Part shown: positions 27,438 to 52,545 of the stretch, piece by piece
How positions within the stretch are numbered: the stretch's first letter is position 1
How the letters are laid out: each line of letters begins with the position of its first letter
Assembly (NCBI GenBank): GCA_963782465.1
Contig: CAWAJR010000002.1
Location: 383,691-447,690 of the forward strand
Direction: 5' to 3'
DNA length: 64,000 bases
From: an uncultured Actinomycetes bacterium
GTDB taxonomy: Bacteria; Actinomycetota; Acidimicrobiia; IMCC26256; PALSA-610
Position numbers and translations under genes: made by a program
The notes under the pieces: generated by a model
Told to the model about the DNA's origin: nothing
The model's database searches: none
The model's input: the letters and a program-made list of their open reading frames with translations, nothing else

Positions 27438-29408
27438 TCAGAACAGCGTCGACGCCCAATCGTCGTAGCCGTGGGCGTTGCGCCAGGTCTGTGCCGGGCT
27501 CGGGGTACCCGCCGGCGGCGCGGAGGTGCTGATGCCGCTGTCGACCACGTCGACCCGCGACGGAATGGTGTTGCTGGTGCGGATCTGCTGGCCGTCGATG
27601 ATCTCGAGCCGGTCGAGCCCGTTGTGGTGGCCCCACGATCGGATGTCGATCCGGCGCCCGGAGATGCCGCGTGGCGTCACGGTGCGCTTGGCCGTGAACG
27701 TGAAGCCTCCGCTCGGCGAATTCGACACCCAGGTGCGTTCGAAGTCGAGGTCAACCGGTCCGCCCGACGTTCCGTCCTTGCTGTCTTGGATCATGATCCG
27801 TCCCCGCAACCACGAGTCGAGGACGCGCAACCCCGAGATCTTCCCCCCGACGCCACCGATTACGTCGGGATGCACGACGTCTTGCGGGTCAAGGTCGTCG
27901 TCGGTCATGTTCCAGGCCGACACACCCTGCAGGAGGGTGTCGGTGCTGTTCGACACGAGGAACGCCGAGCCCGTGTCGTGCACGTCGGCGCCGTAGAACG
28001 AGACGCGCTGGGTCGACTGCTTGTCGGCATAGATCGTGCGCGGTGCTCGGTAGGGGCCGCGTTCGGGGTGCGACTTGTCAGGCGCTTGGCCGACCCACGC
28101 CTGCGCGGGGAATGAGTGGTCGGTGTACCAGAACGCGAGGTTGTTCCCGTACGCATAGAGCGAACCGTTGATGAACTTGAAGCCGACGAAGAGCACCCGG
28201 CTCGTCGTCGCGTCGAGCGTCAGCGGCGATCCGGAGAGGTCGACCACCACGCCGTCCTTGGACTCGGCGCGCAGCACGAGCCATCCCTTGTACTTCCCGG
28301 CCGTGGCCGCGTGGGGAGCAGAAACGGTTCCGGCTCGGTACGTCCCGTCGGGGACGGTCAGCACCTGGTCGCCGTGCTGCTGGATGTAGGTGACGATGTT
28401 CGAACCAAGATCGGTCGGGGGTGGTGACGGTGACCCGTCGCCCGGGCTCGTCGTCGGCGTCGTGCTCGGCGTCGTGCTCGGCGATGTGCTCGGCGATGTG
28501 CTCGGCGATGTGCTCGGCGGCACGCCGGGGTGGGTCGCCGGGGACCGGGCGGGGATGGTCGTCGACGGGGCCTTCGAACCGCTCTTGCCGCCGCTGCCCC
28601 GGAAGTACTCGGGGTAGTGCACCGCGGTCCCGTTGGCCGACATGACCTCCCACGAACCACTCGCGAGCCGCACGAGCCCGACGAGCACGCGGCTGCGCAA
28701 CGCGCTCGCGCTGTAGACGCCGGCGCCGTAGCCGTACACGTGACTGTCGTTGGCCGTCAGCCAGTAGCCGTGACCGTGCGAGGGTACGGCGATGCTCGTC
28801 ACGGCTGCGCTCGCGTGCCCCGCGGCGGACCCGTGGAACGCGGCGTGACCAAAGCTGAAGACGCCACCGTCCTGGGCCACGAGCCAGTAGCCGAGGCCGT
28901 CGCGAGTCGGCGCCATCGCCGCGATCGGGCTCTTCAACCGGATGACGGCGGCCGAACCGCGGAAGTGGGCATCACCGAAGCTGAACACCCCACCGTCGGA
29001 GGCAACCAGCCAGTAGCCCCGGCCCGAAGGCGTCGCGGCCATGCCGACGATCGGCTCGTTGAGATGGATCGCGCCGAGTGAACCTTTGAAACGCGCGTTG
29101 CCGAAGCTGAACACGCCGCCGTCGGAGGCCGTCAACCAGTAGCCGTGGCCGGATGGCGTCGCGGCGATGCCGACGATCGGTTCCCTGAGATGGATGCTCT
29201 GGGCGCCGCCGTAGGGACGGGCGTCGCCGAAGCCACGTACGAGGCCGTTCGAGTAGACGACCCAATAGCCACGACCCGAGGGCGTCGAGGCGAACGAGAC
29301 CGGAGCCACCGCCGGTGTCTGCGCCTGGAGCATCCCCTGCCAGCCGCCGATCGCGGCCAGTGTGAGGATGGTCGCACCGATCGCGATCGCGCGTCGACGG
29401 TGTCGCAT
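27438..29408 (-). CDS. Secreted protein: signal peptide, ~5 copies of a 42-aa 'GYWL..DGGVF.FG' repeat, S/T/P linker, C-terminal unknown domain
   Basis: Signal peptide MRHRRRAIAIGATILTLAAIGG... Repeats such as GYWLVASDGGVFSFGDAHFRGSAAVIRLKSPIAAMAPTRDGL. Linker PSTSPSTSPSTSPSTTPSTTPTTSP. The C-domain is paralogous to 24364..25593. Confidence 0.85.
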   Translation of the reverse strand: MRHRRRAIAIGATILTLAAIGGWQGMLQAQTPAVAPVSFASTPSGRGYWVVYSNGLVRGFGDARPYGGAQSIHLREPIVGIAATPSGHGYWLTASDGGVFSFGNARFKGSLGAIHLNEPIVGMAATPSGRGYWLVASDGGVFSFGDAHFRGSAAVIRLKSPIAAMAPTRDGLGYWLVAQDGGVFSFGHAAFHGSAAGHASAAVTSIAVPSHGHGYWLTANDSHVYGYGAGVYSASALRSRVLVGLVRLASGSWEVMSANGTAVHYPEYFRGSGGKSGSKAPSTTIPARSPATHPGVPPSTSPSTSPSTSPSTTPSTTPTTSPGDGSPSPPPTDLGSNIVTYIQQHGDQVLTVPDGTYRAGTVSAPHAATAGKYKGWLVLRAESKDGVVVDLSGSPLTLDATTSRVLFVGFKFINGSLYAYGNNLAFWYTDHSFPAQAWVGQAPDKSHPERGPYRAPRTIYADKQSTQRVSFYGADVHDTGSAFLVSNSTDTLLQGVSAWNMTDDDLDPQDVVHPDVIGGVGGKISGLRVLDSWLRGRIMIQDSKDGTSGGPVDLDFERTWVSNSPSGGFTFTAKRTVTPRGISGRRIDIRSWGHHNGLDRLEIIDGQQIRTSNTIPSRVDVVDSGISTSAPPAGTPSPAQTWRNAHGYDDWASTLF

Positions 29409-29545
29409 AAAGCCCCGGGCCCTTCGTCGGTCCAGGGCTGGCGGTCGGGTTCGGCAACCCGGCTAGGTCCCCCGCAGGACCCCCGTGGCTTTGCGTCCTC
29501 GAATCGCTTCGAGTTTGCCCTTTCGACCCGCCCTGGGTGCTGCCA
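29409..29545 (-). promoter_or_regulatory. Candidate structured 5' leader of the secreted repeat protein
   Basis: On the minus strand, the helix CCAGGGCGGGUCG (29536-29524) pairs with CGACCGCCAGCCCUGG (29447-29432). It encloses a GNRA-capped hairpin CUCGAA-GCGA-UUCGAG (29513-29498) and two further GC hairpins. The element ends about 20 nt before ATG 29408. Confidence 0.3.
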
Positions 29546-29869
29546 GTTGCGTCAGTCCTCGTCACGCAATGTGACGATCGTCTCGCTCACTGGATTCAAT
29601 CGGCAGCGCGTCGTTCGATTCTTAAGGTCGCCACGACGATTTGGTGGACGGAATGTCTGCTTTGTTGGGTAGTGCCCCGAGGTTGCCCGGCCAGAACGCG
29701 TCACCGTCGAAGGTCTTCGGCTGGACGCGTCATCCGAACAATCACGTCGAATCGCCGTTCGCGCCCCAGACGACGCCCGCGTTCCAGCGCGACGGTGGAT
29801 GAGGTCCCACCTTCGAAGTACCGTGCGGCGCCGCCTTGACAACCGTTTGACCGGCAGGGGGAACTTGTC

Positions 29870-30985
29870 ATGCGCGTAACGCGGGCGCGGTCGATGGTTT
29901 CGTCGCGCAACTGGAATCGGGCGCGTGACCTCCTCGCGACGTACGGCGACTTCTACCGCCAGTCGCCGCAGCGCAAGCCGGTGCATCGGCAGGTCGACGA
30001 AGCGGCACGGTTGTGGCGGGCCTACCGTTTCCCGCCGTACCAGTACCTGAAGCACGGCTTGTTCGAACGCGACGTGCGGGGTGACGTCGCCGCGTTCATG
30101 CCGATCGAGTGGTTCCACCGGTTCCGCGACGAGCGAAATACGCCGGACGCCGCGCGTGCAGTCATCGACAAGGCGGAGTTCGGGCGACGGATGGAGGCCG
30201 CCGGCTTGCCGGTTGTGCGTGAGTTGTTCGTCGTCGCGCGCGACCGCACCATCGTGGACGCGGCGCGCCGTCCGGTCAGCTTCGATTCGATGGTTGAGAC
30301 GCTCCTGGAACGACCGGTCACTACCCACTTCGTGAAACCGATGGCGAGCGGACAGGGTCGGGGGGCGTTCCGCGTCCTCGAGCGTGAACAGAAACTTCTC
30401 GTCGACGACGACGTGATCACCGAGGCATGGTTCTTCGAGCGATTGTTCGGCGATCGTCCGCACAAGAACTACGTGGTCCAACCAAACATCTGTCAGCATC
30501 CGTTGCTCGAGCGGCTGAACCCGGCGTCGGTCAATACGGTGCGGATCGACACCTTCATTGACGGCGATCGAGTGCAGATCAGTACCGCGCTGTTGCGAAC
30601 AAGCGACGGTACGTGCTGCACCGACAACCTCTCGACCGGTGGCTTCATCGTGGAGATCGATGTCGCCACCGGAGCCCTCGGGGCTGAAGCCCGAACCAAG
30701 CCGGGGCTTTCGCGTCGGTATGTCAGCGCTCATCCCGTGACGGGGTTTGTCTTCGACGGTGTGGTGCTACCGCACTGGGACGCGCTCCTCGACTGTGTTC
30801 GCCGCGGCGCCGAAGCGTTGCCCTCGTTGGGTTCCATCGGCTGGGACGTCGCCATCACGGCCGACGGCCCACTGTTCATCGAGGCTAATCACACCTACGA
30901 TTTCTCGACCCAGCAAGAAGGCGCTCGCGGGTTACGCGACACGCCTCTCGGCTGTGCTGTTCGCGAACGTTATGGGTTGGGTTGA
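29870..30985 (+). CDS. ATP-grasp protein of the sugar-transfer-associated type (ATPgrasp_ST-like)
   Basis: 371 aa. ..HFVKPMASGQGRG.. is followed by ..NTVRIDTF.. and ..GGFIVEIDVATG..WDVAIT.DGPLFIEAN.., the usual ATP-grasp C-terminal layout. Confidence 0.7.
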   Translation: MRVTRARSMVSSRNWNRARDLLATYGDFYRQSPQRKPVHRQVDEAARLWRAYRFPPYQYLKHGLFERDVRGDVAAFMPIEWFHRFRDERNTPDAARAVIDKAEFGRRMEAAGLPVVRELFVVARDRTIVDAARRPVSFDSMVETLLERPVTTHFVKPMASGQGRGAFRVLEREQKLLVDDDVITEAWFFERLFGDRPHKNYVVQPNICQHPLLERLNPASVNTVRIDTFIDGDRVQISTALLRTSDGTCCTDNLSTGGFIVEIDVATGALGAEARTKPGLSRRYVSAHPVTGFVFDGVVLPHWDALLDCVRRGAEALPSLGSIGWDVAITADGPLFIEANHTYDFSTQQEGARGLRDTPLGCAVRERYGLG

Positions 30986-31653
30986 CGACATTTCTGCGAC
31001 GTCTTGCCGACGTCGAAGCCTCCGAGTCCTTGTCCAACCGCCTTCGGCGCCGCCGCTTTGCGCGTTTTCAGTCGCTCCTCGCTGAGCTCGAGCACCCGGT
31101 TCGCATCCTCGACGTCGGCGGCACCGAAACGTTCTGGCAGAACATGCGGGTCGAGACGTCCGATTCGATCAGCGTCGTTCTGCTCAACCTCGACGTCACG
31201 GCGCCGACGAGTTCGACGTTCAGCGTCGCGCGCGGCGACGCGACCGACCTTTCGCGCTACGCCGACGGGGCGTTCGATGTTGTGTTCTCCAACTCCGTCA
31301 TCGAGCACGTCGGGGATCTCCACGCGCAACGCCGTATGGCCGATGAAGTGCGGCGGGTGGCGACGCACTACTGGGTTCAGACGCCATGCCGGTGGTTCCC
31401 GATCGAACCTCATTTCCTGTTCCCGCTCTTCGGGGTGATGCCCATCTCGTTGCGAGCCTGGTTCATCAGGCATTTCTCCCTCGGCTGGCGTGAACGGGTA
31501 CCCGATCGAGATGCGTCGTACCGCGCGGCAAGGTCGGTCCGGCTCCTCAGCCGGCGAGAGCTCCAGTCGATGTTCCCCGATGCCGCGTGCCTGCGAGAGC
31601 GGTTCTTCGGGTTGACGAAGTCGTGGATCCTGATCGGCGGCTGGCCGCACTGA
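30982..31653 (+). CDS. Class I SAM-dependent methyltransferase
   Basis: Contains RILDVGG.. and ..FDVVFSNSVIEHV... Its TTG start overlaps the ATP-grasp stop by 4 nt. Confidence 0.8.
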   Translation: MTTFLRRLADVEASESLSNRLRRRRFARFQSLLAELEHPVRILDVGGTETFWQNMRVETSDSISVVLLNLDVTAPTSSTFSVARGDATDLSRYADGAFDVVFSNSVIEHVGDLHAQRRMADEVRRVATHYWVQTPCRWFPIEPHFLFPLFGVMPISLRAWFIRHFSLGWRERVPDRDASYRAARSVRLLSRRELQSMFPDAACLRERFFGLTKSWILIGGWPH

Positions 31654-31714
31654 CATCCGGTACGGGTAGGCGCACCGCCGGGCCCCGCACGGTTGCGTCT
31701 ACCCTGCGCGTCGC

Positions 31715-32638
31715 ATGACCGCATCGCCGCCGATCCTCGTCGTCGGCATCTCTCGCCGGAGCGGTACGAACTATCTCGCCAGCCTGATCTCGCTGCACGA
31801 GGACTGCGCGCCACCGCGGCCACCGCTGGCCGAAGATCATCTGCTGCGCGACGCGACGTTGCTCACGGAGTACGCGCGCCGGGCGTCGGAACGATGGCCG
31901 CTGCGCTGGGGTGATCGCGCCGATGCGCGCACACGGTTGCAGTGGAGCCTTGGTGCGGCGCTCGAGGCATTCCTCGCCGACGGCGTGGCGGCACCACGTG
32001 TCGTGAGCAAGACCCCGAGCCCCGAACATCTCGACCTCCTCCCCGACCTCCTTCCCGACGCGTACGTCATCGTGCTCCTGCGCGACGGGCGCTCGACCGT
32101 GCAATCGATGGTGCGGGGCTTCCGTTTCTCCTTCCACAAAGCCGCGAGCGAATGGGCCGCCGGTGCCGCGTCGATCCTTGCGTTCCAGCGCGATGTCGTG
32201 CCCGCGCACCCGGGGTTGCGGGTGCGGATCGTGAAGTACGAAGACGTCGTCGCCGACACCGAGCGCGAGCTGCGCGCGCTACTCGAGTTCTGCGCGCTCG
32301 ACACGACCCGCTTCGACTTCGCGGCCGCGGTGAATGCACCCGTGATCGGGTCGTCGTTCGTGCGCACCGGTGAGGGCCGGCTCACCTGGCAACCGCAAGC
32401 CCGCACGACCGACTTCTCGCCCACGAGGCGGTTCGAACAATGGGGTGCGGCTTCCCGCGCGCGCTTCGACCATCTCGCCGGCGACCTCCAACGCGCGCTC
32501 GGCTACGAGTCGCCCGCCGTCACGGGTCAGGCCTGGTCGGTGTTCAACCGCGTGGCTGATGCCGCGGCACCCCTTGCGCGGCTCCGCGACGACGCGACCC
32601 AGCGCTACTACGTCCGGAAAGCCCGGCGCCGAGCCTGA
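31715..32638 (+). CDS. Sulfotransferase-family protein
   Basis: Contains PILVVGISRRSGTNYL (PSB-like loop) and VIVLLRDGRSTVQS (3'-PB-like). Confidence 0.75.
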   Translation: MTASPPILVVGISRRSGTNYLASLISLHEDCAPPRPPLAEDHLLRDATLLTEYARRASERWPLRWGDRADARTRLQWSLGAALEAFLADGVAAPRVVSKTPSPEHLDLLPDLLPDAYVIVLLRDGRSTVQSMVRGFRFSFHKAASEWAAGAASILAFQRDVVPAHPGLRVRIVKYEDVVADTERELRALLEFCALDTTRFDFAAAVNAPVIGSSFVRTGEGRLTWQPQARTTDFSPTRRFEQWGAASRARFDHLAGDLQRALGYESPAVTGQAWSVFNRVADAAAPLARLRDDATQRYYVRKARRRA

Positions 32639-32662
32639 AGCGCGATAGGCGGGCAGAACGAG

Positions 32663-32709
32663 AACGCCCCGAGCTCGACCGTTTGCGGGGGAACGGCGAG
32701 CTCGGGGCG
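32663..32709. terminator. Long GC hairpin between convergent sulfotransferase genes
   Basis: The 14-bp arm acgccccgagctcg pairs with cgagctcggggcgt. The loop contains an inner 5-bp stem (ccgtt/aacgg). Confidence 0.5.
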
Positions 32710-32905
32710 TCTCACGACGGCGAGCAGGTTCCCCGCCGGCGATATGGCAACCGGACGGCGCGATGGGCTGTCGGAAAATGCGACGGCCGTACCCCCCGGG
32801 CAACTCATGTGCCTCTCCATTCGTGATCGGCATTTGCCGGCGTGACGCTTGAGCCGCTGGGCGCGATTTGTCCGACAAAATGTCCGATAAGAGGGCGGGC
32901 GCGGC

Positions 32906-33835
32906 CTACGCGATCCCCCAGCCGTCGAAGTCGGGACCGACGAACGGCTTCAGGCGGGCGACGTCGTCGTGGAAGGACGCCCGCAGTTCGGCTGCCCGGC
33001 CCGCGGGGAGGATGCCCGCGTCGAGGTCGACGGGCCGGGTCAGGAGGCGCTCGCCGGCGCGGCGTACGGCAACCGGGGTGCGGTCGACCACGGCCCGGTA
33101 GAGCCGGTTGCCGTGCAGGTGCCGCCACACGGCACGACGGGTGCGTTTCGTCTCGGTACGCCCGCGCTCCTCATCGATGGAGGCAGGCACCTCGCGGTCG
33201 TCGACACCGATGAAACGGAACAATCGGGCCAACGTCGCTTCGCGGTCCGCTTTCAAGGCTTCGGAGGTGAGCACGCAGATCCGGTCCGGATCGAAGAACT
33301 CGAGGTACTGGTCGAGTTGCCATGCATAGCGGCTCGAGTTCAGGTACATCGGTTCTTCAGCCAGCGCCTGCTCGATCGGCCGGGTTTCTCGGCCCCTCGC
33401 CAACTCGTGCAGGTACATCGAGCACGCCCGCGCGACCGGTTCGCGAACCAGGTACACCAACTTCACCTCAGGTACCACTTGCGCGATCCGTGCCGCGACG
33501 CCGGGGAACTGGTCGGCTTGCGAATACGACGGCGAAACCTCGCCGCGGGCGATCGCATCGCCTGCCGCGGCGAAATGCTCGGCGTACCACTCGACGCCTT
33601 CGTCCCAGTGCTTCGACGCGGGGAAGAAATGCAGTTCCTTGGGTGTGGCCATGAAGACCTGCGAGTGGGCCTGGAGGTAGCCGTAGAGGCTGGTGGTTCC
33701 CGATTTCATCGCGCCGATCACCAGGAAGGTCGGCAGTACCAATCCGTCGTTCAACTTCGCCTGCTTGTCGGTGCTGACGGGCAATGGTCGCGCGGTAGCA
33801 CCATCCGGCTCGCAGTTCGTGAGGAGCCCGAGCAT
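32906..33835 (-). CDS. Sulfotransferase (Sulfotransfer_1-like)
   Basis: Contains FLVIGAMKSGTTSLYGYL (5'-PSB) and KLVYLVREPVARACS (3'-PB). Confidence 0.85.
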   Translation of the reverse strand: MLGLLTNCEPDGATARPLPVSTDKQAKLNDGLVLPTFLVIGAMKSGTTSLYGYLQAHSQVFMATPKELHFFPASKHWDEGVEWYAEHFAAAGDAIARGEVSPSYSQADQFPGVAARIAQVVPEVKLVYLVREPVARACSMYLHELARGRETRPIEQALAEEPMYLNSSRYAWQLDQYLEFFDPDRICVLTSEALKADREATLARLFRFIGVDDREVPASIDEERGRTETKRTRRAVWRHLHGNRLYRAVVDRTPVAVRRAGERLLTRPVDLDAGILPAGRAAELRASFHDDVARLKPFVGPDFDGWGIA

Positions 33836-33870
33836 CGGCCATCATTGGGCGAACGGCACGGAAGGGGAAC

Positions 33871-35127
33871 ATGACAGCCGCCGGCCGGACGCGTCGCGTC
33901 CTGATCATCGTCCAGAACCTTCCGGTACCGCTCGACCGGCGCGTCTGGATGGAATGCCAGGCCCTCGTCGACGCCGGCTACGGCGTCACCGTGATCTGCC
34001 CTCGTGGCGACCGGCCCGAAGACCGCTCCCGATTCGAAGTCCTCGACGGCGTGCACATCTACCGGTACCGCAGCGCGCCGCAGGCCGAAGGAGCAACCGG
34101 GTTCTTCTACGAGTTCGCCTACTGCTTCCTCGTCAGCCTCTACCTCGCCGTGAAGGTGTACCGGCGGGAGGGTTTCGACGCGATCCAGGCGTGCAACCCG
34201 CCCGATACGTTCTGGGCGCTCGCACTGCTCTTCCGCCCGCTCGGCGTGCGCTTCGTCTTCGATCAGCACGACATGTGCCCCGAGGTGTACGAGGCACGCT
34301 TCGAGCAACCCTCTCGCGTGCTGCTCGGCGCGCTCAAGCTGCTCGAACGCGCGTCGTACCGAACCGCGCACCAGGTCGTGGTGACGAACACCTTCGAGCG
34401 CGACATCGCGTCGCGGCGAGGGCATCTCGGGCCCGGCGATGTCACTGTCGTGCGCAATGCACCGCGCTCCGACCGCTTCGTCCGCGGTGTCGCGCACCCC
34501 GAACTGAAACGCGGTCGCGACCACCTTTGCTGCTACCTCGGCGTCATGGGGCCACAAGACGGCGTCGACATCGCGATCCGCGCCCTCGACGTGATCGTGC
34601 ACAAGCTGGGTCGCACCGACGTGTCGTTCGCGCTCATGGGGTTCGGCGACTCGTTCGACGAGTTGCAGGCGCTCTGCGAGGAACTGCACGTCGACGACTA
34701 CGTCGAGTTCACGGGCCGGGCCGACGACACGATGATCGGCGAATACCTGTCGACGGCCGATGTCGGGCTCGTGCCCGATCCGCCGACCCGCTTCAACGAC
34801 ACGTCGAGCATGAACAAGACGGTCGAGTACATGGCGTTCGCAGTGCCGCTGGTCGCGTTCGACCTGCGCGAAACCCGCGCGACGGCCGGCGACGCGGGTG
34901 TGTACGTGACCGGCAACGACCCCACTGGCTTCGCCAACGCGGTGCTGATGCTGCTCGACGACCCAGAACGCCGGCGGGTCATGGGCGAGGCCGGGCGGGC
35001 CAAACTCGAGCACGAGTTGGCATGGGAGCACCAGGCCGACGCGTACATCGGCGTCTACAACCGCGTACTGGGCGGTGCGCGTGTGGACGACCACGACCGA
35101 GGAACGTCGCCTCAGGCTGCGTCGTAG
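33871..35127 (+). CDS. GT-B family-4 glycosyltransferase
   Basis: The N-domain begins RVLIIVQNLPVP.D.R. The C-domain carries ..SSMNKTVEYMAFAVPLVAFDL.. (E-x7-E-like). Confidence 0.85.
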   Translation: MTAAGRTRRVLIIVQNLPVPLDRRVWMECQALVDAGYGVTVICPRGDRPEDRSRFEVLDGVHIYRYRSAPQAEGATGFFYEFAYCFLVSLYLAVKVYRREGFDAIQACNPPDTFWALALLFRPLGVRFVFDQHDMCPEVYEARFEQPSRVLLGALKLLERASYRTAHQVVVTNTFERDIASRRGHLGPGDVTVVRNAPRSDRFVRGVAHPELKRGRDHLCCYLGVMGPQDGVDIAIRALDVIVHKLGRTDVSFALMGFGDSFDELQALCEELHVDDYVEFTGRADDTMIGEYLSTADVGLVPDPPTRFNDTSSMNKTVEYMAFAVPLVAFDLRETRATAGDAGVYVTGNDPTGFANAVLMLLDDPERRRVMGEAGRAKLEHELAWEHQADAYIGVYNRVLGGARVDDHDRGTSPQAAS

Positions 35128-36221
35128 AAGCTGCGCACGCCGTCGACCACCTGGTCGATCGCGCCGTCGTCGAGTTCCGGGTAGCAGGGCAACGACACGA
35201 TCGAGTCGGCGAGCGCCTCGGCGACGGGGAAGTCGCCGCGAGCGTGACCGAGGTGCCGGTACGCAGGCTGCAAGTGCAACGGCACCGGGTAGTGCACGCC
35301 GGTGGCGATTTCGCGCGCGGCAAGATGCTTCCGCAAACCATCACGGTCTTCGGCCCGCATGACGTAAAGGTGGTGCACCGGCTCCGCGCCGTCGACGAAG
35401 GTCGGGAACGACAGCCCACCGACATCCGCGAGTGCCTCGTTGTAGCGCTGCGCGCACCGTCGTCGTTTCGCATTGCCCTCGTCGAGAAACCGCAACTTCA
35501 CGCCGAGAACCGCGGCCTGGATCGTGTCGAGGCGGCTGTTCCAACCTTCGACACGATGCTCGTACTTGTCGAGGCGGCCGTGGTCGGCGTAGAGACGGAC
35601 GCGTTCCGCGGTCTCGTCGTCGTTGGTGACCACGGCGCCGGCGTCGCCGTAGGCACCGAGGTTCTTCCCGGGATAGAAGCTGAACGCCCCGGCCCGGCCG
35701 AGCGCACCAACCCGCTTTCCGCGTAGGCGCGCGCCGTGCGCCTGCGCGGCGTCTTCGACGACCATCAGGTGACGCTCCGCGGCGAACCCGTTCACCGCGT
35801 CCATGTCGACCGGATGGCCGTACAGGTGCACCGGTACCACGGCACGCGTGCGATCGGACACGCGCGCCGCGGCCTCTCCGACGTCGAACAACCAGGTGTC
35901 GGGGTTGATGTCGACAAAACGCGGGACGGCACCGACGTGGCCCATCGCCTCCGCGGTGGCAATGAATGTCGTGGGAACGGTGAGCATCTCGTCGCCGGGC
36001 TCGATCTCGAGCGCGCGGAACACAAGGCGCAACGCATCGGTACCGTTGCCCACACCGATCGCGTGTCGCGCCTCGCAATAGGCGGCGAAGGCCGTCTCGA
36101 ACTCGCCGACGGCGGGGCCCTTCACGAACGCGGTCGTCTCGATCACCGCGGCGATCGCGGCGTCGATGTCCGGCTTGAGGTTGTCGTACTGCGAGCGCAG
36201 GTCGACCAGGGGGATCTTCAT
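35112..36221 (-). CDS. DegT/DnrJ/EryC1/StrS-family PLP-dependent sugar aminotransferase (WbpE-like)
   Basis: Contains ..VGNGTDAL..VVEDAAQAHGA..GAFSFYPGKNLGAYGDAGAVVTND.., with the PLP lysine in YPGKNLG. Confidence 0.9.
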   Translation of the reverse strand: MKIPLVDLRSQYDNLKPDIDAAIAAVIETTAFVKGPAVGEFETAFAAYCEARHAIGVGNGTDALRLVFRALEIEPGDEMLTVPTTFIATAEAMGHVGAVPRFVDINPDTWLFDVGEAAARVSDRTRAVVPVHLYGHPVDMDAVNGFAAERHLMVVEDAAQAHGARLRGKRVGALGRAGAFSFYPGKNLGAYGDAGAVVTNDDETAERVRLYADHGRLDKYEHRVEGWNSRLDTIQAAVLGVKLRFLDEGNAKRRRCAQRYNEALADVGGLSFPTFVDGAEPVHHLYVMRAEDRDGLRKHLAAREIATGVHYPVPLHLQPAYRHLGHARGDFPVAEALADSIVSLPCYPELDDGAIDQVVDGVRSFYDAA

Positions 36222-36364
36222 TTGCGATCCTCGCGTGGAGCGGTCGGTTCGGCGGTGGGCAGCGAAAGTCTACGGGGGACGGTCAAGAATTCGCGAACGG
36301 TCCGCCGTCCGGCCGCGCCGGCATCCGCCGATAGCATTCGCCCGCTGCCGGACAGGGGAAGTGG

Positions 36365-37387: not shown

Positions 37388-37410
37388 TCCTTCCACTCGA
37401 ACGAGTACGC

Positions 37411-38289: not shown

Positions 38290-38307
38290 GCCAGGCCGGA
38301 GCGAAGA

Positions 38308-40385: not shown

Positions 40386-40402
40386 TTCGTTACGGTCGCC
40401 GC

Positions 40403-42178: not shown

Positions 42179-43643
42179 GGTCCTACTCCAATGCGCTCCC
42201 TGCGCTCCTCGGGTACGTCCACGATGGCAGTGCGGGTACAGATTCGCAAGAGCGCACCGGCGCTGCCGATACCGATGAACAACAAACCGGCGGTGAGCGG
42301 GTACCGGACGATTGCGAGCCCGAAACCGCCCAGCGCGACCGCCGCGATCATGGCGATGAGGCTCCGCGCGAGGTCGCGGTTTGCCGGGTCGCTCGTCGTG
42401 CGGCGGACTTCGCGCGCCGCGCCGACACCGCCGCCCATCGCCACGAGGAGCGCGACCAGACCGACCAGTCCGGTCTCGACGAGCGTGACCAGATACTGGC
42501 TGTCGATGTTGATGACGACCGGTGTCGGGACCGACAACGCGAAGCCGTTCCCGAAGACCGGGTTGTGCCCGATGAGGTTGAACGCGATCCCGGTCGCGTC
42601 GGTACGCGTCGCGATGCTCCCCGTGCCCTGCGTGCCGTTGAACAGGCCGACGATGGTGTCGAACACACCCGGAAGCAGCGTGTTCACCACGACCAGCGTG
42701 ATCACGAGCCCGAGCAGCAGGCGCCAGCGACGGGCCGGCGCCCACGTCGGGAGGATGATCAACGCGACCAGGATCGTCGAGAGCACCGCGGAGCGCGAGA
42801 GCGAAAGCGGGATCGCGGCCGCGATCAGCAACGCCGCAAGACGCGAGCCCGCGCCGCGACGCTCGTACGGGCGTACGCGCCGAGGTGCAACGCCAGCGGG
42901 AGCGTCGCGGCGAGGGCGAGCCCGAATTCGATCGGGTGCCGAGCGGTCCCGGCCACCCGGGCAAGACCGGAGCGCTGGTAGATGAAGCCTTCCTGACCGG
43001 TGGCGTTGAACCCGGGCGGTCGCAGGTACTGCCCGACGTCGAAATGCGCGAAGTACTGCAAGTAGCCGATGAACGCGACGATCGCGCCACCGAGGACGAC
43101 TGCACCGATGACCCGGTTGAGTTGTCGCTTCGTGCGGACGCCGTCGGTGATCGCGACCGCCAGCCCGCACAGTCCGACCACCACGGCCAGGTTCCGGTCG
43201 ATGCTGCGCTGGTCGAGACTCGAAAGCGGGCGCAGCGCGACGACGACGTACTCGGCCAGCGTGACGAACAGCAACGTGAGGACGGCCCGATTGGCTGGCG
43301 ACGCACCCCGGGCCACGCGGCTCACCGGCAACGCCCGGCCGAACGCCCACAACCCGAACGCGACGAAGCCGAAGAACATCGCCCCGGTCACCGCGAACGC
43401 GCCGATCGTGTAGCGCGACGGGATCATCCAGAGCGCGATGGCGTACAGCACGATCACCGTGGTGAGGTCGATGCGCGTGCGGAACAACCACAGGATCACG
43501 AGACCCGTCAGCGCGATCAGACCGGCGACCGGCACCAACCACGCCAGGACCGCGACCGCCAGCAGCCGAACGACGACACTCAGGGCGACGCCGTTCGACG
43601 GCGTCGTTTCGGCGAGGGCGGGCGACTGATCGCCGTCGGTCAC
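42175..43643 (-). pseudogene. Wzy_C-type polytopic membrane protein (O-antigen polymerase/ligase-like), frame broken near 42868-42872
   Basis: The N-terminal TM bundle is in ORF 42825..43643. The C-terminal part, with ..IPLSLSRSAVLSTILVAL.. and further TM spans, is in ORF 42175..43542. The junction is a CCC/GGG run. The span is 1469 nt, which is 3n+2. Confidence 0.75.
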
Positions 43644-44497
43644 GACGCGAAGCCGCTACGGCGGCGAGGTTTCGCCCGCGCGCGACCAGGCTGTTGCTTC
43701 ACGGGTGCCGGCGCCGGAGCGGTCTCCGGTGGTTCTTCGAGATCGATCGAGTCGGGAACACCCGACCCGCGTTCCCATACCGCCGGGCTGTTCCCGCTGG
43801 TGCCCGGTGCGACACCCGGCGCCGCGACCGGCACCGGCGACGGCGATGCAACCCGCATCCGGCGCCGGTCGCGCCGGTTGAGGGCCGACTGTGCCCAACT
43901 CTCGACGAGCAAGGCGACGCTGAGGACCGCCGCGATCGCGAGCGCGATGAACGCGATCAAGGCGCGGGTCCTGGCTGCGTTGAGCGCGGTCGCCTTGGTC
44001 GGGCTCGACAACACCTCGGTGCCGATGCTCTGCGACGCCGTGACACCCTTTTGCCGCTCGAGCGCCGCGATCTCCGACACCGTCTGGGTGAGCACGGCGC
44101 GCGTGGTCGTGACGGCAACGCTCGCCCGGCTGTCCTTGGTGTCGACACGGAGGATCGGCGCGTCCTGGTCGACCGAGACCGTGTAGGCCTTCGTGACCGA
44201 GGGGGCTCGGGCGATGGAAGCCTTCTTCGCGGGGTTGTTCATGACCTCGGCGAAGGCGATGGCGGCCTTGTCGAGCGGAGCGATCGGCAGGAACGGGTTG
44301 CCGTCGGCCGCGGCGGCGTTGTCGGCCAGTGCCGGCGACTTCGTGACCGGCGTGAGCAGCAGCAACGAGCCTTTGGCCTCGTAGGTGGGTTTCACCGACG
44401 CGAGGAGCTGGTGACCGATGATCGCCGCGACCAGGATCGTCGGTACCACGACGATCCAGCGGCGAACCAGGATCCTGAGCAGCGTGCGAAGGTCCAC
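43640..44497 (-). CDS. Wzz-like polysaccharide chain-length determinant (PCP-type topology)
   Basis: The N-terminal TM (RRWIVVVPTILVAAIIG) follows a ..LLRILVRRW.. motif. Then come a ~170-aa extracytoplasmic segment, a second TM (ALIAFIALAIAAVLSVALLV) and a Pro-rich tail. Its stop overlaps the wzy-like GTG (GTGA). Confidence 0.65.
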   Translation of the reverse strand: MDLRTLLRILVRRWIVVVPTILVAAIIGHQLLASVKPTYEAKGSLLLLTPVTKSPALADNAAAADGNPFLPIAPLDKAAIAFAEVMNNPAKKASIARAPSVTKAYTVSVDQDAPILRVDTKDSRASVAVTTTRAVLTQTVSEIAALERQKGVTASQSIGTEVLSSPTKATALNAARTRALIAFIALAIAAVLSVALLVESWAQSALNRRDRRRMRVASPSPVPVAAPGVAPGTSGNSPAVWERGSGVPDSIDLEEPPETAPAPAPVKQQPGRARAKPRRRSGFAS

Positions 44498-44675
44498 GCG
44501 AGTTCTCCGATCGACCGATGAGCTGTGGGCGGAGATTTCGCCTGGCGCGTACGCCGGCCCCCTGTTGGCGCCCCAACGCGCTCAGCGACGATACCAGCCG
44601 GCCACTCATCACTGAGCGCGCGGACGGCCGTCCGGGAAACGAACTACGCTATGGACGAGCGTCGCTGAGATCGGG

Positions 44676-45344: not shown

Positions 45345-45407
45345 TCGGTCAACCCGATCGGGCCGGCCTGATCGTGCTTCAGCCCGGCGAGCGCCGGGCG
45401 CTTCGGG

Positions 45408-48039
45408 TCAGAGGCCTCGCACGACCATCCGCGTGATCGGTTGCCGCAAGCGCAGCGCACCGGTCGACCCGTGGAACTTCGCGTCGCCGAACGAGAAGAT
45501 GCCACCATCGCGACCGAGCAGCCAGTAACCGTGGCCGGTGGGTGTGGCGATCATCTGTACGACGTTCGCGTTCACGTGTTTGCCGAGCATCGACCCGTAG
45601 TAGCCGGCATCGCCGAACGCGTACACCGAACCGTCCGCGTTGGCGACCCAGTAACCACGACCGGTCGGCGTCGGGACGAGTTGCACCGGAGGTGCCGGCA
45701 CTGCCGAGGTGCTCGTACCCCCGTGGAAGTGTGCAGCGCCGAAACCGAAGACCGCGCCGTTCGCGGCCAGCAACCAGTAGCCCTTCCCTGAAGGCGCGGG
45801 CACCATCTGGATGATGGGTGCGGTCAGCGCCAGCGCCCCGGTGGAACCGAAGAACTTCGCGTCGCCGAAGCTGAAGATCCCGCCGTCGGACGCGCGCAGC
45901 CAGTAGCCGTTGCCATCGGGTGTTGCGATCATCTGCACGACCGGCGCCCGCAATGCCAACGCACCCGTCGACCCGTAGAACTTCGCGTCGCCGAACGTGA
46001 ACACACCACCGTCGGACGCCAACAACCAGTACCCACGACCCGACGGCGTCGCGATCATCTGCACGATCGGGGCCCGCAATGCCAACGCACCCGTCGACCC
46101 GTAGAACTTCGCGTCGCCGAACGTGAACACACCACCGTCGGACGCCAACAACCAGTACCCACGACCCGACGGCGTCGCGATCATCTGCACGATCGGGGCC
46201 CGCAATGCCAACGCACCCGTCGACCCGTAGAACTTCGCGTCGCCGAACGTGAACACACCACCGTCGGACGCCAACAACCAGTACCCGTCGCTGGAGATCG
46301 TGCGGGTGCCGGTGACACTGCTGGTCACCGTGACCTTCTCGAAGTCGCGGTAGGTGATCGTGGGCCAGCCGTCGACCATGATCATGTCGCCCAGCACGTG
46401 GGCGGCCCGGTTCCCGGCGGCCACGGTGAGGGTGTCGTCGCCGGTGCCACCGCTGGCGATCACGTTCTTGACGCCGGTGAAGTTGCGCGCCCCGATCGTG
46501 ATGTGGTCGTTGCCCCGCTGGCCGTTCACCATGAGCGTTTCGATGTGCGAGTAATCGATGCGCTCACGCCCGTTCTGAACGTGCGACCCGTTGATCGAGA
46601 TCTGCTCGCCCGTCCCGTTGCCGAACATCGAAAGGCGGTCGACGCCGTTCGTCCCGCTGTCGACGATCTGTACGAGGCCCGCCAGCGCACCGAAGAACAC
46701 GTCGTAGGTGTCGGCGCCGTTGCCGAGGTCGGCATGCAACCCGCGCGAGGCCGAACTGGTGAACCCGGTTTCGTCGGGCCCGTCGGTGCCGACGAAGTTG
46801 ACCGGGCCGCCGCCCACGCCGACCTGCACGTCGATCGAGGCGGTTTGCGGCGCGCTCTTCGCGCCGTGGACATCTTCGGCGCGGAAGGTGAAGCTGTCGG
46901 CGCCCTTGAACTGCGGGCCGGGGTCGTAGATGAAGCTGCCGTCGGCCTTGAGGGTGAGCGTGCCGTGCGACGGCGGTTGCACGAGGAGCGCGGTGAGTGC
47001 GTCGTTCTCGACGTCGGTCGCCCCGAAGAGCACGCCCGGCGCGACGGCTTGCAGCGGGGTGTTGAACGGCGTCGTGAACGTCTGCGGCGTCGCGACCGGA
47101 GCGTCGTTCACCGGCGTGATCGTGATGGTGACGGTCGCGGTGTTCGGAATTGGCGGCGCCGTCGTTGGCGCGGTAGGTGAACGTGTCGGTGCCGTTGTAG
47201 TTGGCGTCGGGGGCGTAGGTGCACGCGCCGGTGGTGGTGGAACACACTGCGGTGCCGTGGGCCGGTTGTGCCACCACGTGGTAGGTGAGCACGTCGGCCG
47301 GGTCGGGATCGGTGGCGCTCAGCGAGAGGCTCACCGACGTGTCTTCGGCGGTCGTTGCCGCCACCGCCGCCGCGACCGGCGGATGGTTGACGGCGGTCAC
47401 GGTGATGTTCACGGTCCCGGAGGCGGACACCGCACCCTGCGGGTCGTGCGCCTGGTACGTGAAGGAGTCGGAACCGGAGAAGTTCGCGGCGGGCGTGTAG
47501 GTGCAGGAGCCATCACTGCTGCACGACACGGTGCCGTTGCCTGCGCTCCCGGCAGTGAAGGTGAGCGTCGAGGGGCTGTCGTCGGTGTCGCTGCCAGTCA
47601 ACGTGATGTCGAGCGGGGTGCCCTCGGAGGTCGTCACCGATCGGTTCGCGACCGTCGGCGCGCTGTTGGTGACGGTGATCGTGACCGTCGCCGGCGCGGC
47701 CGAATCAGAAGTGCCGTCGTTCGCGTTGTAAGTGAACGTGTCGTTGCCGACGAAATTGGCGTCGGGCGCGTAGGAGTACGACCCGTCGGTGTTGAACGTG
47801 AGCGTGCCGTGGACGGCGTCGGTGACGAGCGACGCGGTGAGCGGGTCGTTCTCGGGGTCGGTGTCGTTGCCGAGCACGCCCGGCGCGGCGACCGACAACG
47901 TCGTGTCGTGCACCACCGTTGCGCTGTCGTCGACCGCGGTCGGCGCGGCGCCCGCCGCGTGCGCCGCCGGCGGCGCAAGGCCCGTCGGCACGGCGATCGC
48001 CGCCACCAAGAGCCACGCCATCAACAGAGGCCGCCGCAT
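45408..48039 (-). pseudogene. Giant secreted adhesin-like protein (signal peptide, 4 cadherin/Big-like domains, RTX-like Ca-binding segment, 7 'GYWL..DGGVF.FG' repeats), frame broken near 47153-47158
   Basis: ORF 46564..48132 gives MRRPLLMAWLLVAAIAVP.., then ..VDDSATV..GVLGNDTDPENDPL..TFTYNANDG.. repeats up to ..TFTYRANDGAANS. The next domain (NTATVTITITPVNDAPVAT..) continues in ORF 45408..47111. The span is 2632 nt, which is 3n+1. GGGGAAGG lies upstream of ATG 48039. Confidence 0.8.
45949..46284. repeat. Perfect 126-bp tandem repeat (2.7 copies) inside the adhesin coding region
   Basis: The string cgcaatgccaac.. recurs at 45949, 46075 and 46201 with no mismatch that I can see. It encodes three identical blades GYWLLASDGGVFTFGDAKFYGSTGALALRAPIVQMIATPSGR. 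Confidence 0.95.
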
Positions 48040-48180
48040 GACCTTCCCCACGCGCCCGCTCGCGTCCATGCCTTCCCCAACCCCGCCAAGGTCCTGCTCC
48101 CGAAGCCACGACGGTACACGGTTCCCAACCACGCTCCGTCACCCATGGGCACATCCGCCCGCTTCGGGCGGACGCCACGT

Positions 48181-49006: not shown

Positions 49007-49021
49007 GGCACCTCCTTGATC

Positions 49022-49084: not shown

Positions 49085-49085
49085 T

Positions 49086-49718: not shown

Positions 49719-49795
49719 CCTGACAGCGCGCGAACCCGGCCGCGGGCAGCGTTGATCACGCGGGGGTGGTGACTTCCCTTCTACGGTGACGCGCC

Positions 49796-51052
49796 ATGAG
49801 CGACCTCGAACCGACGCCTGCGGTCCTGGTACCGCTCGGCGCGCGGTACCGGCGCCTCTGGGTCGCGACCGCGATCTCGAGCCTCGGCAACGGGGTCTTG
49901 TACGCGGCGATGCCGCTCCTCGCCCGCAATATGACGAAGTCGCCCTCCTCGATCAGCGCCGTCACCGCGTCGACGGCACTGCCCGGCCTCCTCGTCGCGC
50001 TGCACGCCGGTGCCGTTGTCGATCGGCTCGATCGGCGGCGGGTGATGGTCGCGATGGACCTCACCCGGCTCGCCGTCCTGCTCGCGTTCTGCGTGTCGGT
50101 GATCGCCGGGAACGTTCCCCTCCCCGCCATCTACGTCACGGCCTTCGTGCTCGGCGCCGCCGACGTCACCTTCGACGGCGCGGCCCGCTCCGCGCTCCCC
50201 GCGATCGTCCCCGCCGAACGGCTCGATGCCGCCAACGGCCGGCTCGGCGCCGCAACCGACACGATGGACGAGCTGGCCGGCCCGCCCGCGGGCGTGACGC
50301 TGTTCGCGCTCGCCGCCTCGGCACCGTTCCTGTTCGACGCGGGCACGTTCGCGGCGTCCGCGATCCTGCTGTCGACGATCGCCGGTTCGTTCCGCGCCAC
50401 CCGTGACGTCGCGGCACACTCGTTCCGACGAGAGATCGGCGAGGGACTGCGATTCGTGCGCGACTCCCGGACACTGGGCGTCCTCGCGGCCGGCACCGGC
50501 CTGCTCGCGTTCTTCAGTTTGGGCAACCTGTCGGTGCTGGTCTTGTTCGCGCTGTCCTCGAAGGGGCTCGATCTCCCGAGCGTCGGCTACGGCTATCTGC
50601 TGATGACGATCGCGCTCGGTGGGCTCGGCGGCAGCCTCTCGGTCGAGCGCCTCACCCGGCGGTTCGAGCAGGTGCCGGTGCTGACCGCAGCGGTCGCGAT
50701 CAACGGCGCCGCATATCTCTTGCTCGCCGTCGCACACGGCCCGGCGCTCGCAACGGTCGCGACCGTCGCCTGGGGCGCGGCGGTCAGCACCGGGATGATC
50801 GTCTCGATCAGCATGCGCCAGACGCTCACTCCCGATCATCTGCTCGGACGGGTCATGAGCGTGTACCGCGTCCTCGTCGGGTTCGGTGGCGTGACCGGTG
50901 CCCTCCTCGCCGGTGTGCTCGCGGACGCGTTCGGGCTGCGCAGCCCCTATTTCTTCTCCGGCGCGGCGCAACTCGCGCTCGCGCCTCTCTTCGGCATCAC
51001 ATTGCAACACGCGGGGAACACCCGAACGAACGTCGACGGTGGGAGTCTTTGA
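49796..51052 (+). CDS. MFS transporter (12-TM, EntS/MFS_3-like)
   Basis: 418 aa and hydrophobic throughout, with ..GAVVDRLDRRRVM.. in the loop 2-3 motif position. Confidence 0.85.
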   Translation: MSDLEPTPAVLVPLGARYRRLWVATAISSLGNGVLYAAMPLLARNMTKSPSSISAVTASTALPGLLVALHAGAVVDRLDRRRVMVAMDLTRLAVLLAFCVSVIAGNVPLPAIYVTAFVLGAADVTFDGAARSALPAIVPAERLDAANGRLGAATDTMDELAGPPAGVTLFALAASAPFLFDAGTFAASAILLSTIAGSFRATRDVAAHSFRREIGEGLRFVRDSRTLGVLAAGTGLLAFFSLGNLSVLVLFALSSKGLDLPSVGYGYLLMTIALGGLGGSLSVERLTRRFEQVPVLTAAVAINGAAYLLLAVAHGPALATVATVAWGAAVSTGMIVSISMRQTLTPDHLLGRVMSVYRVLVGFGGVTGALLAGVLADAFGLRSPYFFSGAAQLALAPLFGITLQHAGNTRTNVDGGSL

Positions 51053-52545
51053 TGAGCACACTTCGCAGGTACATCCGGGCGGCTGCGGTTGCGATACTGA
51101 CGATCGCGTCGGTGACCGCGTTCTCGGCGGGTGGAGCAGGCGCGTCCGCCGCGTCGGGCACGTTTTGCGCCAGTGGGGACGCGACGATCGTCAACGCGCT
51201 CGCGAACACAACGGTCGATGGGTACATCGCGGGCGCGTTGGCCTTCCGCGGCCTCGCACCCGGTGCGTCAACCGGCGCGTTCCCGATCGCGGCGCTGGTA
51301 TCGGCCGGCTGCCGGACCAGCCAACAGCTGCAGCTCTTCGCCGCGGCATCGTCGCCGCCGGCAGCCGCGCCGGCGACTGGCGCGCTCCTCACCGCGACGT
51401 TCACGGTGGTGTCGCGGCAATCGACCGACGTCCTCGCGATGGTGAGGAGCGGCGGCGCACTCGGCGTCAAACAGTTGACGACCGACGTCGCGCCGAGCTC
51501 GCCGCAGCACGGCGCAATCGTTGTCGTGAACGCGGCGAACGCCGGTGCCGTCGACGTGTACATCGACGGCACGCGCACCAAGACCCATCTCTCCAACGGT
51601 GGACGGGCCCGCACGGATGTCGTGGCCCACGGCACGAGCAGCACCCACCGCGTCAAGTTCACCCGCACGGGCACGAGCACGCCGGTTGCCGCAACGCAGG
51701 CGGTGTCGCTCGGCGACGGAGACGGCACCACCGTGTACCTGACGTCGGCCGGCAACGGCAGCAACGTCGCGACCGTGACCGCGAAATTCGCGGAAGCCGG
51801 CGGTTACCGCATGGTCACCGCCGACGGCGGCGTGTTCGCCTTCGGGAGCGCCCGCTTCTTCGGGTCGGCGGGCAACCTTCCGCTCGCCTCCCCGATCGTT
51901 GCCGCCGCGTCGAGCCCCAGCCGCAACGGGTACTGGCTCGCGGCGGCCGATGGCGGTGTGTTCGCGTTCGGCGACGCGCACTTCTTCGGGTCGGCCGCGC
52001 AGCTGCAGCTGAGCGCGCCGGTCGTCGCGATCGCGCCGACCCCGAGCGGGCGCGGCTACTGGCTGGCAACCGCCGACGGCGGCGTCTTCGCGTTCGGCGA
52101 CGCACAGTTCCGCGGGTCGGCGGGAGCGCTTCCCCTCACCGCGCCGGTCGTGAGCTTCGCACCCACCGGGAGCGGCAACGGGTACTACCTGCTCGGCCAG
52201 GATGGCGGCGTCTTCGCGTACGGCGACGCACAGTTCCGCGGTGGCGCGACCCAATCGGGTACCACGCCGGTGGCGATCGGCGTCCCCTCGACCGGTACCG
52301 ACTACTGGGTGTTGTTCGCGAACGGCGGCCGCACCGACGTGGGCGCGGCTCGCTTCTTCCTGTTCCCGCAGCCGAACCCCTGGCCGCCGGTGCAGGCGCC
52401 CCTCGTGTCGATGCTCGCGACCGCAGGCCCGCACGGGCTCTGGGCGGCCGCCGCCGACGGTGGCCTGTTCACCCTCGGGGATGCACCGTTCCGGGGCAAT
52501 CTCGTGACCACACCGCATGCCGCACCGGTCGTCGCGATCATGTAG
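51052..52545 (+). CDS. Secreted protein: signal peptide, DUF4397-like beta-sandwich, ~6 'GYWL..DGGVF.FG' repeats
   Basis: Signal peptide MSTLRRYIRAAAVAILTIASVTAFSAGGAGASA and ..AIVVVNAANAGAVDVYIDG... Repeats such as GYWLATADGGVFAFGDAQFRGSAGALPLTAPVVSFAPTGSGN. The ATG overlaps the MFS stop by 1 nt. Confidence 0.8.
   Translation: MSTLRRYIRAAAVAILTIASVTAFSAGGAGASAASGTFCASGDATIVNALANTTVDGYIAGALAFRGLAPGASTGAFPIAALVSAGCRTSQQLQLFAAASSPPAAAPATGALLTATFTVVSRQSTDVLAMVRSGGALGVKQLTTDVAPSSPQHGAIVVVNAANAGAVDVYIDGTRTKTHLSNGGRARTDVVAHGTSSTHRVKFTRTGTSTPVAATQAVSLGDGDGTTVYLTSAGNGSNVATVTAKFAEAGGYRMVTADGGVFAFGSARFFGSAGNLPLASPIVAAASSPSRNGYWLAAADGGVFAFGDAHFFGSAAQLQLSAPVVAIAPTPSGRGYWLATADGGVFAFGDAQFRGSAGALPLTAPVVSFAPTGSGNGYYLLGQDGGVFAYGDAQFRGGATQSGTTPVAIGVPSTGTDYWVLFANGGRTDVGAARFFLFPQPNPWPPVQAPLVSMLATAGPHGLWAAAADGGLFTLGDAPFRGNLVTTPHAAPVVAIM

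Follow-up and report, generated by a model that had tools for sequence, protein, structure and literature searches.

A strictly periodic 42-residue repeat occurs in three proteins encoded by a 64,000-nucleotide stretch of DNA from an uncultured Actinomycetes bacterium (contig CAWAJR010000002.1, positions 383,691 to 447,690; hereafter the window). Tandem arrays of this repeat are predicted to fold into a β-propeller, and in Acidimicrobiia and their phages the domain so formed probably works as a multivalent module for cell-wall binding or anchoring. Each 42-residue unit would make up one four-stranded blade of a secreted propeller, canonically six-bladed, which would act as a portable, non-catalytic binder of the cell wall or cell surface and keep its fused partner on the envelope of Acidimicrobiia. 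The cargo held in this way would comprise peptidoglycan hydrolases, transpeptidases, proteases, glycosidases and Ig-like ‘stalk’ proteins, and in the window itself a putative β-helix enzyme, a cadherin-like/RTX protein and a DUF4397-like protein. In the endolysins of phages that infect these bacteria, two- or three-blade versions of the same module would take the part of the C-terminal domain that binds the wall.

The 42-residue repeat and its predicted fold

A hidden Markov model (HMM) built from the window’s own copies and run against the six-frame translation recovered exactly 18 repeats, with per-copy E-values of 1e-14 to 1e-25 (hmmsearch), of which 5 lie in protein 1 (27438..29408, minus strand), 7 in protein 2 (45408..48039, minus strand) and 6 in protein 3 (51052..52545, plus strand); there are none in the window beyond these three proteins, and a large family was recovered outside it. 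The repeat period determined with Tandem Repeats Finder (TRF) is exactly 42 residues, or 126 nt. The family consensus, derived from 1,696 blades of 267 homologues, reads GYWLVASDGGIFSFGDAxFYGSTGGxxLNxPIVGMAATPDGx; nearly all blade positions are conserved, and only positions 18, 20, 26, 27, 30 and 42 vary freely. A first-pass annotation of the window, which had described about 18 copies of one repeat in three proteins with a period of about 42 residues and a matching consensus motif, was correct on each of these points. The GC content of the window is approximately 68%, and real reading frames were picked by their third-position GC (GC3). The N-termini of all three proteins display a basic n-region, a hydrophobic stretch and an A-x-A-like site, and to the eye each looks like a putative signal peptide.

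The six-repeat domain of protein 3 (51781-52542) was aligned with 24 homologous domains, and the resulting 25-sequence alignment served as input for structure prediction. The AlphaFold2 (AF2) model is all-β, with a predicted local distance difference test score (pLDDT) of 88.1 and a predicted template-modelling score (pTM) of 0.87, an insertion in blade 5 being its only weak spot. Each repeat in the model comprises three clear strands (GYWLxA, GGVFxF and PIVxMA) and one short strand (FxGS), as assigned by DSSP. Foldseek comparison with the PDB returned 922 matches at E ≤ 1e-3, and the best 50 of these 922 were all propellers at a probability of 1.00, led by the designer protein WRAP-T (7bid), mLST8, a Thermomonospora WD40 protein (5yzv) and an archaeal YVTN protein (1l0q), with template-modelling (TM) scores of at most 0.62 and sequence identities of 8–16%. 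The matches in BFVD were likewise all propellers at a probability of 1.00, the highest percentage identity being to RCC1 proteins. The repeat domain is predicted from these models to be a β-propeller without a close solved relative, in agreement with the initial proposal that the repeats are propeller blades, which the AF2 and Foldseek results support with high confidence.

Six blades are the norm: six repeats were counted in 87 of the 120 closest homologues, in 121 of 178 arrays among diverse representatives and in 81 of 86 genomic arrays. An earlier figure of five to seven copies per protein holds for the window, with its counts of 5, 7 and 6, but not for the canonical blade number. Arrays located at the C-terminus start at GYW and stop a few residues past PIVGM, ends that, read as sequence, would look like those of a 3+1 ‘velcro’ closure of the ring.

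The repeat has no family model in Pfam-A (2025 copy) or NCBIfam 20.0, against which the three window proteins and 25 family members were searched, and a single-sequence phmmer search against all PDB chains gave no matches; the repeat is thus unannotated, as first supposed. When the family profile was run against the PDB, the best match was the RCC1-like domain (RLD) of HERC2, which at E 0.021 is not significant, despite which the alignment keeps the same motif order. As far as literature searches show, neither the repeat nor a propeller-type binding domain of endolysins has been described. Assignments to Ribosomal_L24e, SH3_YKFC_2nd, DUF5818 and RCC1_2 were rejected as spurious, being short, sub-threshold matches summed over the repeats. 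Sub-threshold Ribosomal_L24e matches occur in 20 of the 25 family members, and many homologues (for example, P0013, P0037, P0046 and P0049) are named ‘ribosomal protein L24E’ by JGI, probably a systematic annotation error that arises when short GYWLVASDGGIFSFGD-type segments match the L24e model and their scores are summed over the repeats.

The first-pass annotation had excluded WD40, Kelch, NHL, YWTD, PD40, RCC1 and BNR by inspection, and the repeat indeed could not be placed in any of these families, but RCC1 turned out to be the nearest sequence pattern after all. The RCC1-like repeats (PF00415/PF13540; HERC2 RLD, PDB 4l1m) share the order (I/V)V.(I/M)AA...G..(Y/H).L(A/V)...dG.V(F/Y)s(F/W)G....G.(L/S)G.....L..P..V with the 42-residue repeat. 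They differ in geometry, with blades of 51–68 residues in a seven-bladed ring, as opposed to strictly 42 residues with six blades as the norm. RCC1 membership was not obtained by HMM either: protein 2 reaches 22.8 bits with RCC1_2 over the whole protein against a cutoff of 22, with each single stretch below it, protein 3 scores 14–20 bits, and just 3 of the 25 family members have matches. The four-stranded blades of approximately 42 residues resemble those of WD40, YVTN and PD40 proteins, which supply the best Foldseek matches; the repeat differs from these in having six rather than seven blades (81 of the 86 genomic arrays), in its near-identical blades, in its extracytoplasmic location and in TM scores of about 0.6 (TMq ≤ 0.62 to seven-bladed WD40 proteins). 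There is some likeness to WD40 in the order ..PDG..(l)(a)S.s.DG.i..(W/F)(D/G), which serves as a lead only, and the WD40 HMM (PF00400) found nothing in the three window proteins or the 25 family members even at E ≤ 1. The NHL, YWTD (Ldl_recept_b), Kelch, PD40, BNR, TECPR, FG-GAP and YVTN models likewise gave no matches on the repeat region at E ≤ 1, the PD40, FG-GAP and PQQ matches in some homologues being separate partner domains. RCC1-like repeats are therefore nearest by sequence pattern and WD40/YVTN nearest by blade geometry, but the repeat could not be assigned to any of the named propeller families.

Distribution, fusion partners and phage endolysins

When the 25-sequence profile was run exhaustively with HMMER against 1.84 billion cluster representatives, 20,924 proteins of up to approximately 2,400 residues scored at E ≤ 1e-3, of which 11,267 reached E ≤ 1e-30; a word-indexed homologue search gave at least 7,999 matches. 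The family thus amounts to approximately 21,000 clusters at 50% identity, with several copies per genome, and despite this very large size it escapes standard annotation. In a genomic set restricted to one genome per species, the best 80 loci belong almost entirely to metagenome-assembled genomes (MAGs) of Acidimicrobiia, Acidimicrobiales or Acidimicrobiaceae, and include the cultured Acidithrix ferrooxidans PY-F3. The sole exception to Actinomycetota among these 80 is a locus (DATMMX010000039.1, L062) in a MAG labelled Candidatus Angelobacter (Acidobacteriota), a label that may reflect a binning error or horizontal transfer. Several genomes have more than one family locus, and at five loci two or three family genes are adjacent. 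The ClpP protein encoded in the window shares 89% identity with a protein from a MAG named ‘Actinomycetia bacterium’ and 67% with its counterpart in an Acidimicrobiia MAG. Searches for identical recorded sequences gave no match for proteins 1 and 3, and for ClpP just a metagenome contig of 2 kb.

The recognisable partners of the repeat domain in the 120 closest homologues are mostly peptidoglycan enzymes, namely YkuD L,D-transpeptidase with or without PG_binding_1 (16), CAP (8), CHAP (7), NlpC/P60, M23 and Amidase_3 (3 each) and VanY (2), together with GH25, glucosaminidase and 3D domains. Longer or more diverse members contain Ig-like stalks (Big_1, Big_3_5, TIG, fn3 and Big_9/cadherin). Wider samples add proteases (S8 and sedolisin), cell-wall and related enzymes (SpoIID and beta-lactamase2) and glycosidases (GH18, GH43 and GH99), and the Beta_helix and DUF4397 partner types of the window recur there; one homologue possesses a bona fide RCC1 domain besides the 42-residue repeat. 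The array is placed at the extreme C-terminus in most proteins, and otherwise directly after the N-terminal signal peptide. The view of the repeat domain as a portable module, formed originally from the three window proteins, is borne out by its fusion to dozens of different partners, and because one constant secreted module is combined with so many passengers, a domain for surface retention or targeting is indicated.

The repeat is also encoded by phages. In the GenBank phage GX15bay, located by tblastn, it forms part of a 1,304-residue protein annotated as GH25 (coding sequence 42901-46815, locus L116), adjoining a minor tail protein, and a scan of IMG/VR yielded 35 viral loci. Most viral repeat proteins are 220–340 residues long and terminate in two or three repeats at their C-terminal end; an N-terminal Amidase_2 domain is present in 16 of 34 viral proteins and GH25 in 2 of 34, and the PHROG ‘endolysin’ models cover the N-terminal catalytic part only (residues ~20–215). 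The non-catalytic repeat module is therefore C-terminal to the catalytic domain, which is the classical layout of endolysins, where the domain that binds the wall comes after the catalytic one. Neighbours of the viral repeat genes include tail fibre and ParB/methyltransferase genes. Viral proteins of 1,000–1,300 residues (at L082, L083, L084 and L116) have 6–10 repeats, in some cases distributed over several arrays, and with the help of the repeat module these long proteins may act as lysins associated with the virion or in receptor binding.

Among the short viral arrays in the IMG/VR loci, blade counts of 2, 3 and 6 occur, whereas counts of 4 and 5 do not. A six-blade ring completed by trimers of the two-blade and dimers of the three-blade versions is suggested by these numbers, by analogy with the RSL lectin, in which a complete ring is assembled from short chains. 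The ends of the arrays point the same way: the viral two- and three-blade arrays (L101:4614-5273, L087:4419-5378 and other loci in the range L085–L112) start at the PIV strand and end with FxG(S/A), which would fit assembly into an oligomeric ring, whereas the C-terminal arrays of cellular proteins, starting at GYW and ending at PIVGM, would fit intramolecular closure. If the phage versions do form such rings, they would provide a natural case of propeller assembly from fragments.

Probable wall binding and competing explanations

All blades keep almost the same sequence, and for this reason the likely mode of binding is multivalent: a repetitive polymer of the wall, be it peptidoglycan or a secondary glycopolymer linked to the wall, would be contacted through one equivalent site on each blade. 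Blades this similar to one another are a typical feature of multivalent lectins with a propeller fold, such as tachylectin-2, RSL and AAL. The propeller lectins (tachylectin-2, RSL/BambL, AAL, PLL and tectonins) resemble the repeat domain in having alike blades, implying one site per blade, and in the case of RSL also in that chains of two blades (three per ring) or three blades (two per ring) may form complete rings, but they share no detectable sequence similarity or specific structural match with the 42-residue repeat.

The closest functional analogy is offered by the choline-binding repeats (CW_binding_1, PF01473; LytA/CbpA and phage Cpl-1), which are likewise portable, non-catalytic wall-targeting tandem repeats of variable number. 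These are β-hairpins of approximately 20 residues arranged as a solenoid, with the phosphocholine of teichoic acids as their ligand, and in pneumococcus host autolysins and phage lysins share this one wall-binding repeat. As with the 42-residue repeat, they are common to host autolysins, surface proteins and phage endolysins; they differ from it in that the 42-residue units would be blades of a closed six-blade propeller, and there is no sequence similarity between the two. The architecture of the repeat proteins, with fusion to amidases, CHAP, NlpC/P60, M23, GH25 and L,D-transpeptidases and a C-terminal position in endolysins, suggests the role that LysM, SH3b, PG_binding_1, SLH, CWB2, GW and LGFP also have, but none of these is a β-propeller and their Pfam models miss the 42-residue repeat. 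PG_binding_1 is found alongside the propeller in single proteins, so the two are not redundant copies of one domain. Wall targeting itself is a known role, and what would be new, in the sources searched, is the use of a propeller fold to perform it.

The competing explanation that survives best, while still unlikely, is that the propeller is a lectin or carbohydrate-binding module (CBM) for a secreted or capsular glycan, here the probably sulfated polysaccharide of the adjacent gene cluster at 16.7–44.5 kb. Locally the association is real, the gene of protein 1 being situated inside this cluster and that of protein 2 on its border; protein 1 joins its propeller to a predicted β-helix resembling polysaccharide lyases and hydrolases, some homologues have GH18, GH43, GH99 or Beta_helix partners, and the near-identical blades are those expected of multivalent propeller lectins. 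On a family-wide scale, however, the association was not observed: among 92 open reading frames (ORFs) flanking family genes at 51 other Acidimicrobiia loci, genes for glycosyltransferases or polysaccharide synthesis were not enriched, a weak negative given the 3-kb flanks and heuristic ORF calling, and the commonest flank families, ABC_tran and alpha/beta hydrolases, occurred three times each. Moreover, the commonest fusion partners act on peptidoglycan, and phage endolysins must bind the wall rather than a capsule. The neighbouring glycan, which the first-pass annotation had put forward as a possible ligand, is for these reasons not favoured over the wall or a wall-linked polymer, to which the partners and the phage endolysins point. 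A wall-linked secondary polymer is a possible ligand, with the product of the cluster not singled out, and were it the actual one, the lectin explanation would merge with that of wall binding.

A WD40-like platform for protein–protein contacts, docking secreted enzymes to the S-layer, to each other or to a membrane complex, is less probable still. The best structural matches are WD40 scaffolds with the same blade length of 42 residues, and the partners are very diverse, as such a platform would allow; scaffold propellers, however, usually have divergent blades, in contrast to the near-identical ones of the repeat, the presence of the module in phage endolysins favours a conserved ligand in the wall that is not a protein, and no conserved partner gene was found in the flanks (92 ORFs, 51 loci).

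The extreme C-terminal position of the domain in most proteins and the great variety of its passengers are also reminiscent of a secretion or sorting tag, analogous to the C-terminal domain of the type IX secretion system, but this has very little to recommend it, since the domain also often stands at the N-terminal end, behind a classical signal peptide, is 250 residues long and internally repetitive, and is found as 2–3 blades in phage endolysins, which are released through holins. That the propeller is itself an enzyme, for example an esterase or lactonase such as the six-bladed SGL/PON propellers, is the most improbable of all: catalytic six-bladed propellers exist and NCBI names one homologue ‘Esterase’, but blade-specific catalytic residues are absent with all blades equivalent, the domain nearly always has a separate catalytic domain as its fusion partner, and it has no similarity to catalytic propeller families in Pfam.

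Several points weigh against the wall-binding module itself. Many family members have no recognisable partner domain, and the partners in wider samples include nutrient-acquisition enzymes, which would fit a substrate-binding CBM equally. The best TM scores are just ~0.6, to seven-bladed WD40 proteins, and ring closure and blade register are deduced from the pTM, the DSSP assignment and the Foldseek matches. Viral contigs can be mis-called fragments of prophage or host, although the two loci that were checked look phage-like. We infer the binding function, as well as multivalency, oligomeric phage rings and the identity of the ligand, and for the function the inference proceeds from guilt by fusion and from analogy with endolysin architecture.

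More tentatively, and with somewhat less than even confidence, the domain can be regarded as an undescribed class of wall-binding domain, the first on a β-propeller in the literature searched, which would serve both as a general surface anchor of Acidimicrobiia and as the binder of their phages’ endolysins, with the short versions oligomerising and the ligand maybe a lineage-specific wall glycopolymer, possibly the neighbouring sulfated glycan. Such a domain would add a new fold to the wall-anchoring and endolysin-binding modules of Gram-positive bacteria. Acidimicrobiia are abundant in soil, freshwater, marine and acid-mine habitats and have few cultured members; recognition of the repeat would annotate the targeting domain of thousands of their secreted proteins, and, if wall binding holds, a fusion of the propeller to GFP could be used as a surface probe for Acidimicrobiia, giving a handle on their poorly known envelope chemistry.

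The three window proteins and the neighbouring glycan genes

Protein 1 (656 residues; frame assigned from the translation, high GC3 and HMM repeats) is composed, in order, of the signal peptide, the propeller repeats, a Pro/Ser/Thr-rich linker and a C-terminal β-helix domain. Its five clear blades (28647..29270, minus strand; hmmsearch E 1e-15 to 1e-23) are preceded by a ‘PVSFASTPSG’ strand and followed by a possible degenerate sixth blade, SWEVMSANGTAVHYPEYFRGS (residues ~253–277; 28578..28652, minus strand), which was aligned to the consensus by eye and missed by the HMM searches. The linker (28422..28577, minus strand), delimited from the translation, contains a 12-nt tandem repeat detected by TRF (28454-28519).

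The C-terminal domain of protein 1 (327 residues; 27441..28421, minus strand) is predicted to be a right-handed parallel β-helix, the AF2 model consisting of stacked short strands with a pLDDT of 95.8 and a pTM of 0.94. Its top Foldseek matches are all carbohydrate-active enzymes with a right-handed β-helix, including GH87, PL6 lyases, AlgE4/AlgG epimerases, RbmB, pectin methylesterases and polygalacturonases, with weak scores (E 3e-4 to 1e-2, TM 0.25–0.48) that indicate likeness at the level of the fold only. The fold common to PL6, GH87, GH28, CE8 and AlgG-type enzymes is thus present in the AF2 model and its Foldseek matches, whereas no specific CAZy family can be assigned, as the domain has no Pfam match and no PDB sequence match. 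It represents an orphan family of approximately 70 homologues, all named ‘hypothetical’ and mostly stand-alone. The segment, initially listed as an unknown domain of about 330 residues, is accordingly a predicted β-helix domain without a Pfam family. On the strength of these models it may be a lyase, hydrolase or epimerase acting on polysaccharides and is a candidate for a new family of such enzymes, and it could plausibly process the polymer of the neighbouring cluster.

Protein 2, delineated from ORFs, translations and GC3, is approximately 877 residues long with a frameshift read through, and comprises the signal peptide, four Big_9/cadherin-like domains (Big_9/Cadherin_5 matches in Pfam at E 1e-59 and 6e-16), an RTX-like Gly/Asp-rich segment and seven propeller repeats near the C-terminus. 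The apparent frameshift, a 1-nt insertion or 2-nt deletion, lies in the third Big_9 repeat (47140..47150, minus strand), where the high-GC3 frame switches and ...RANDGAANS|E carries on in another frame as NTATVTITITPVNDAPVA, the normal end of a Big_9/cadherin-like domain. It divides the gene into two ORFs: the upstream one on the minus strand starts with MRRPLLMAWLLVAAIAVP at ~48039 and holds three Big_9/Cadherin_5 domains, and the other, 45408..47111, is the C-terminal part only. The gene could be a pseudogene, or the frameshift could be a sequencing or assembly error in repeat-rich DNA. The cadherin-like and RTX segments had been recognised in the first-pass annotation; the label ‘giant adhesin’ given there to the protein was discarded in view of its length of ~877 residues and its frameshift, ORF 45408..47111 being just a part of it.

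The seven blades of protein 2 (45417..46286, minus strand) were detected at E 1e-20 to 1e-25 by hmmsearch. Its first 3.6 repeats (TRF, period 126, 45829-46286) match their repeat consensus at 91% of DNA positions, compared with ~75% in the other arrays, and because of this likeness at the DNA level the seventh blade looks like the product of a recent duplication of the unit. An ORF on the same strand (44609-45508) shares ~100 nt with the 3′ end of the protein 2 gene; its high GC3 is a good sign of coding, it has no Pfam matches, and contains a 15-nt tandem repeat at 44916-44979.

The surface glycan biosynthesis region defined by Pfam scans (16716..44497) contains three sulfotransferase genes (17938-18930, minus strand; 31715-32638, plus strand; and 32906-33835, minus strand), GT2 and GT4 glycosyltransferases, a DegT aminotransferase, a GFO oxidoreductase, an NTP-transferase, an ABC ATPase, Asn-synthase-like proteins, an ATP-grasp protein, Wzy_C and Wzz. 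The presence of three sulfotransferases together with Wzy/Wzz, the ABC ATPase, GT2/GT4, DegT and ATP-grasp suggests that the cluster makes a sulfated cell-surface polysaccharide. Two further ORFs within or beside it (42825-43643, minus strand; and 24256-25593, plus strand) have high GC3 and no Pfam matches.

Protein 3 is 497 residues long from its ATG, as translated, and consists of the signal peptide, a DUF4397-like N-terminal region and six propeller repeats that extend to the C-terminus; its blades (51802-52548, plus strand) were found by hmmsearch at E 1e-14 to 1e-23. The N-terminal region (about 51184-51561, plus strand), described early on as a DUF4397-like sandwich, is plausibly of that type, although its Pfam score of 27.5 bits lies below the cutoff of 30.6. 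Directly downstream of protein 3, at 52579-53475 on the plus strand, lies a BNR/Asp-box (Ycf48-like) gene, a second and unrelated gene of propeller type.

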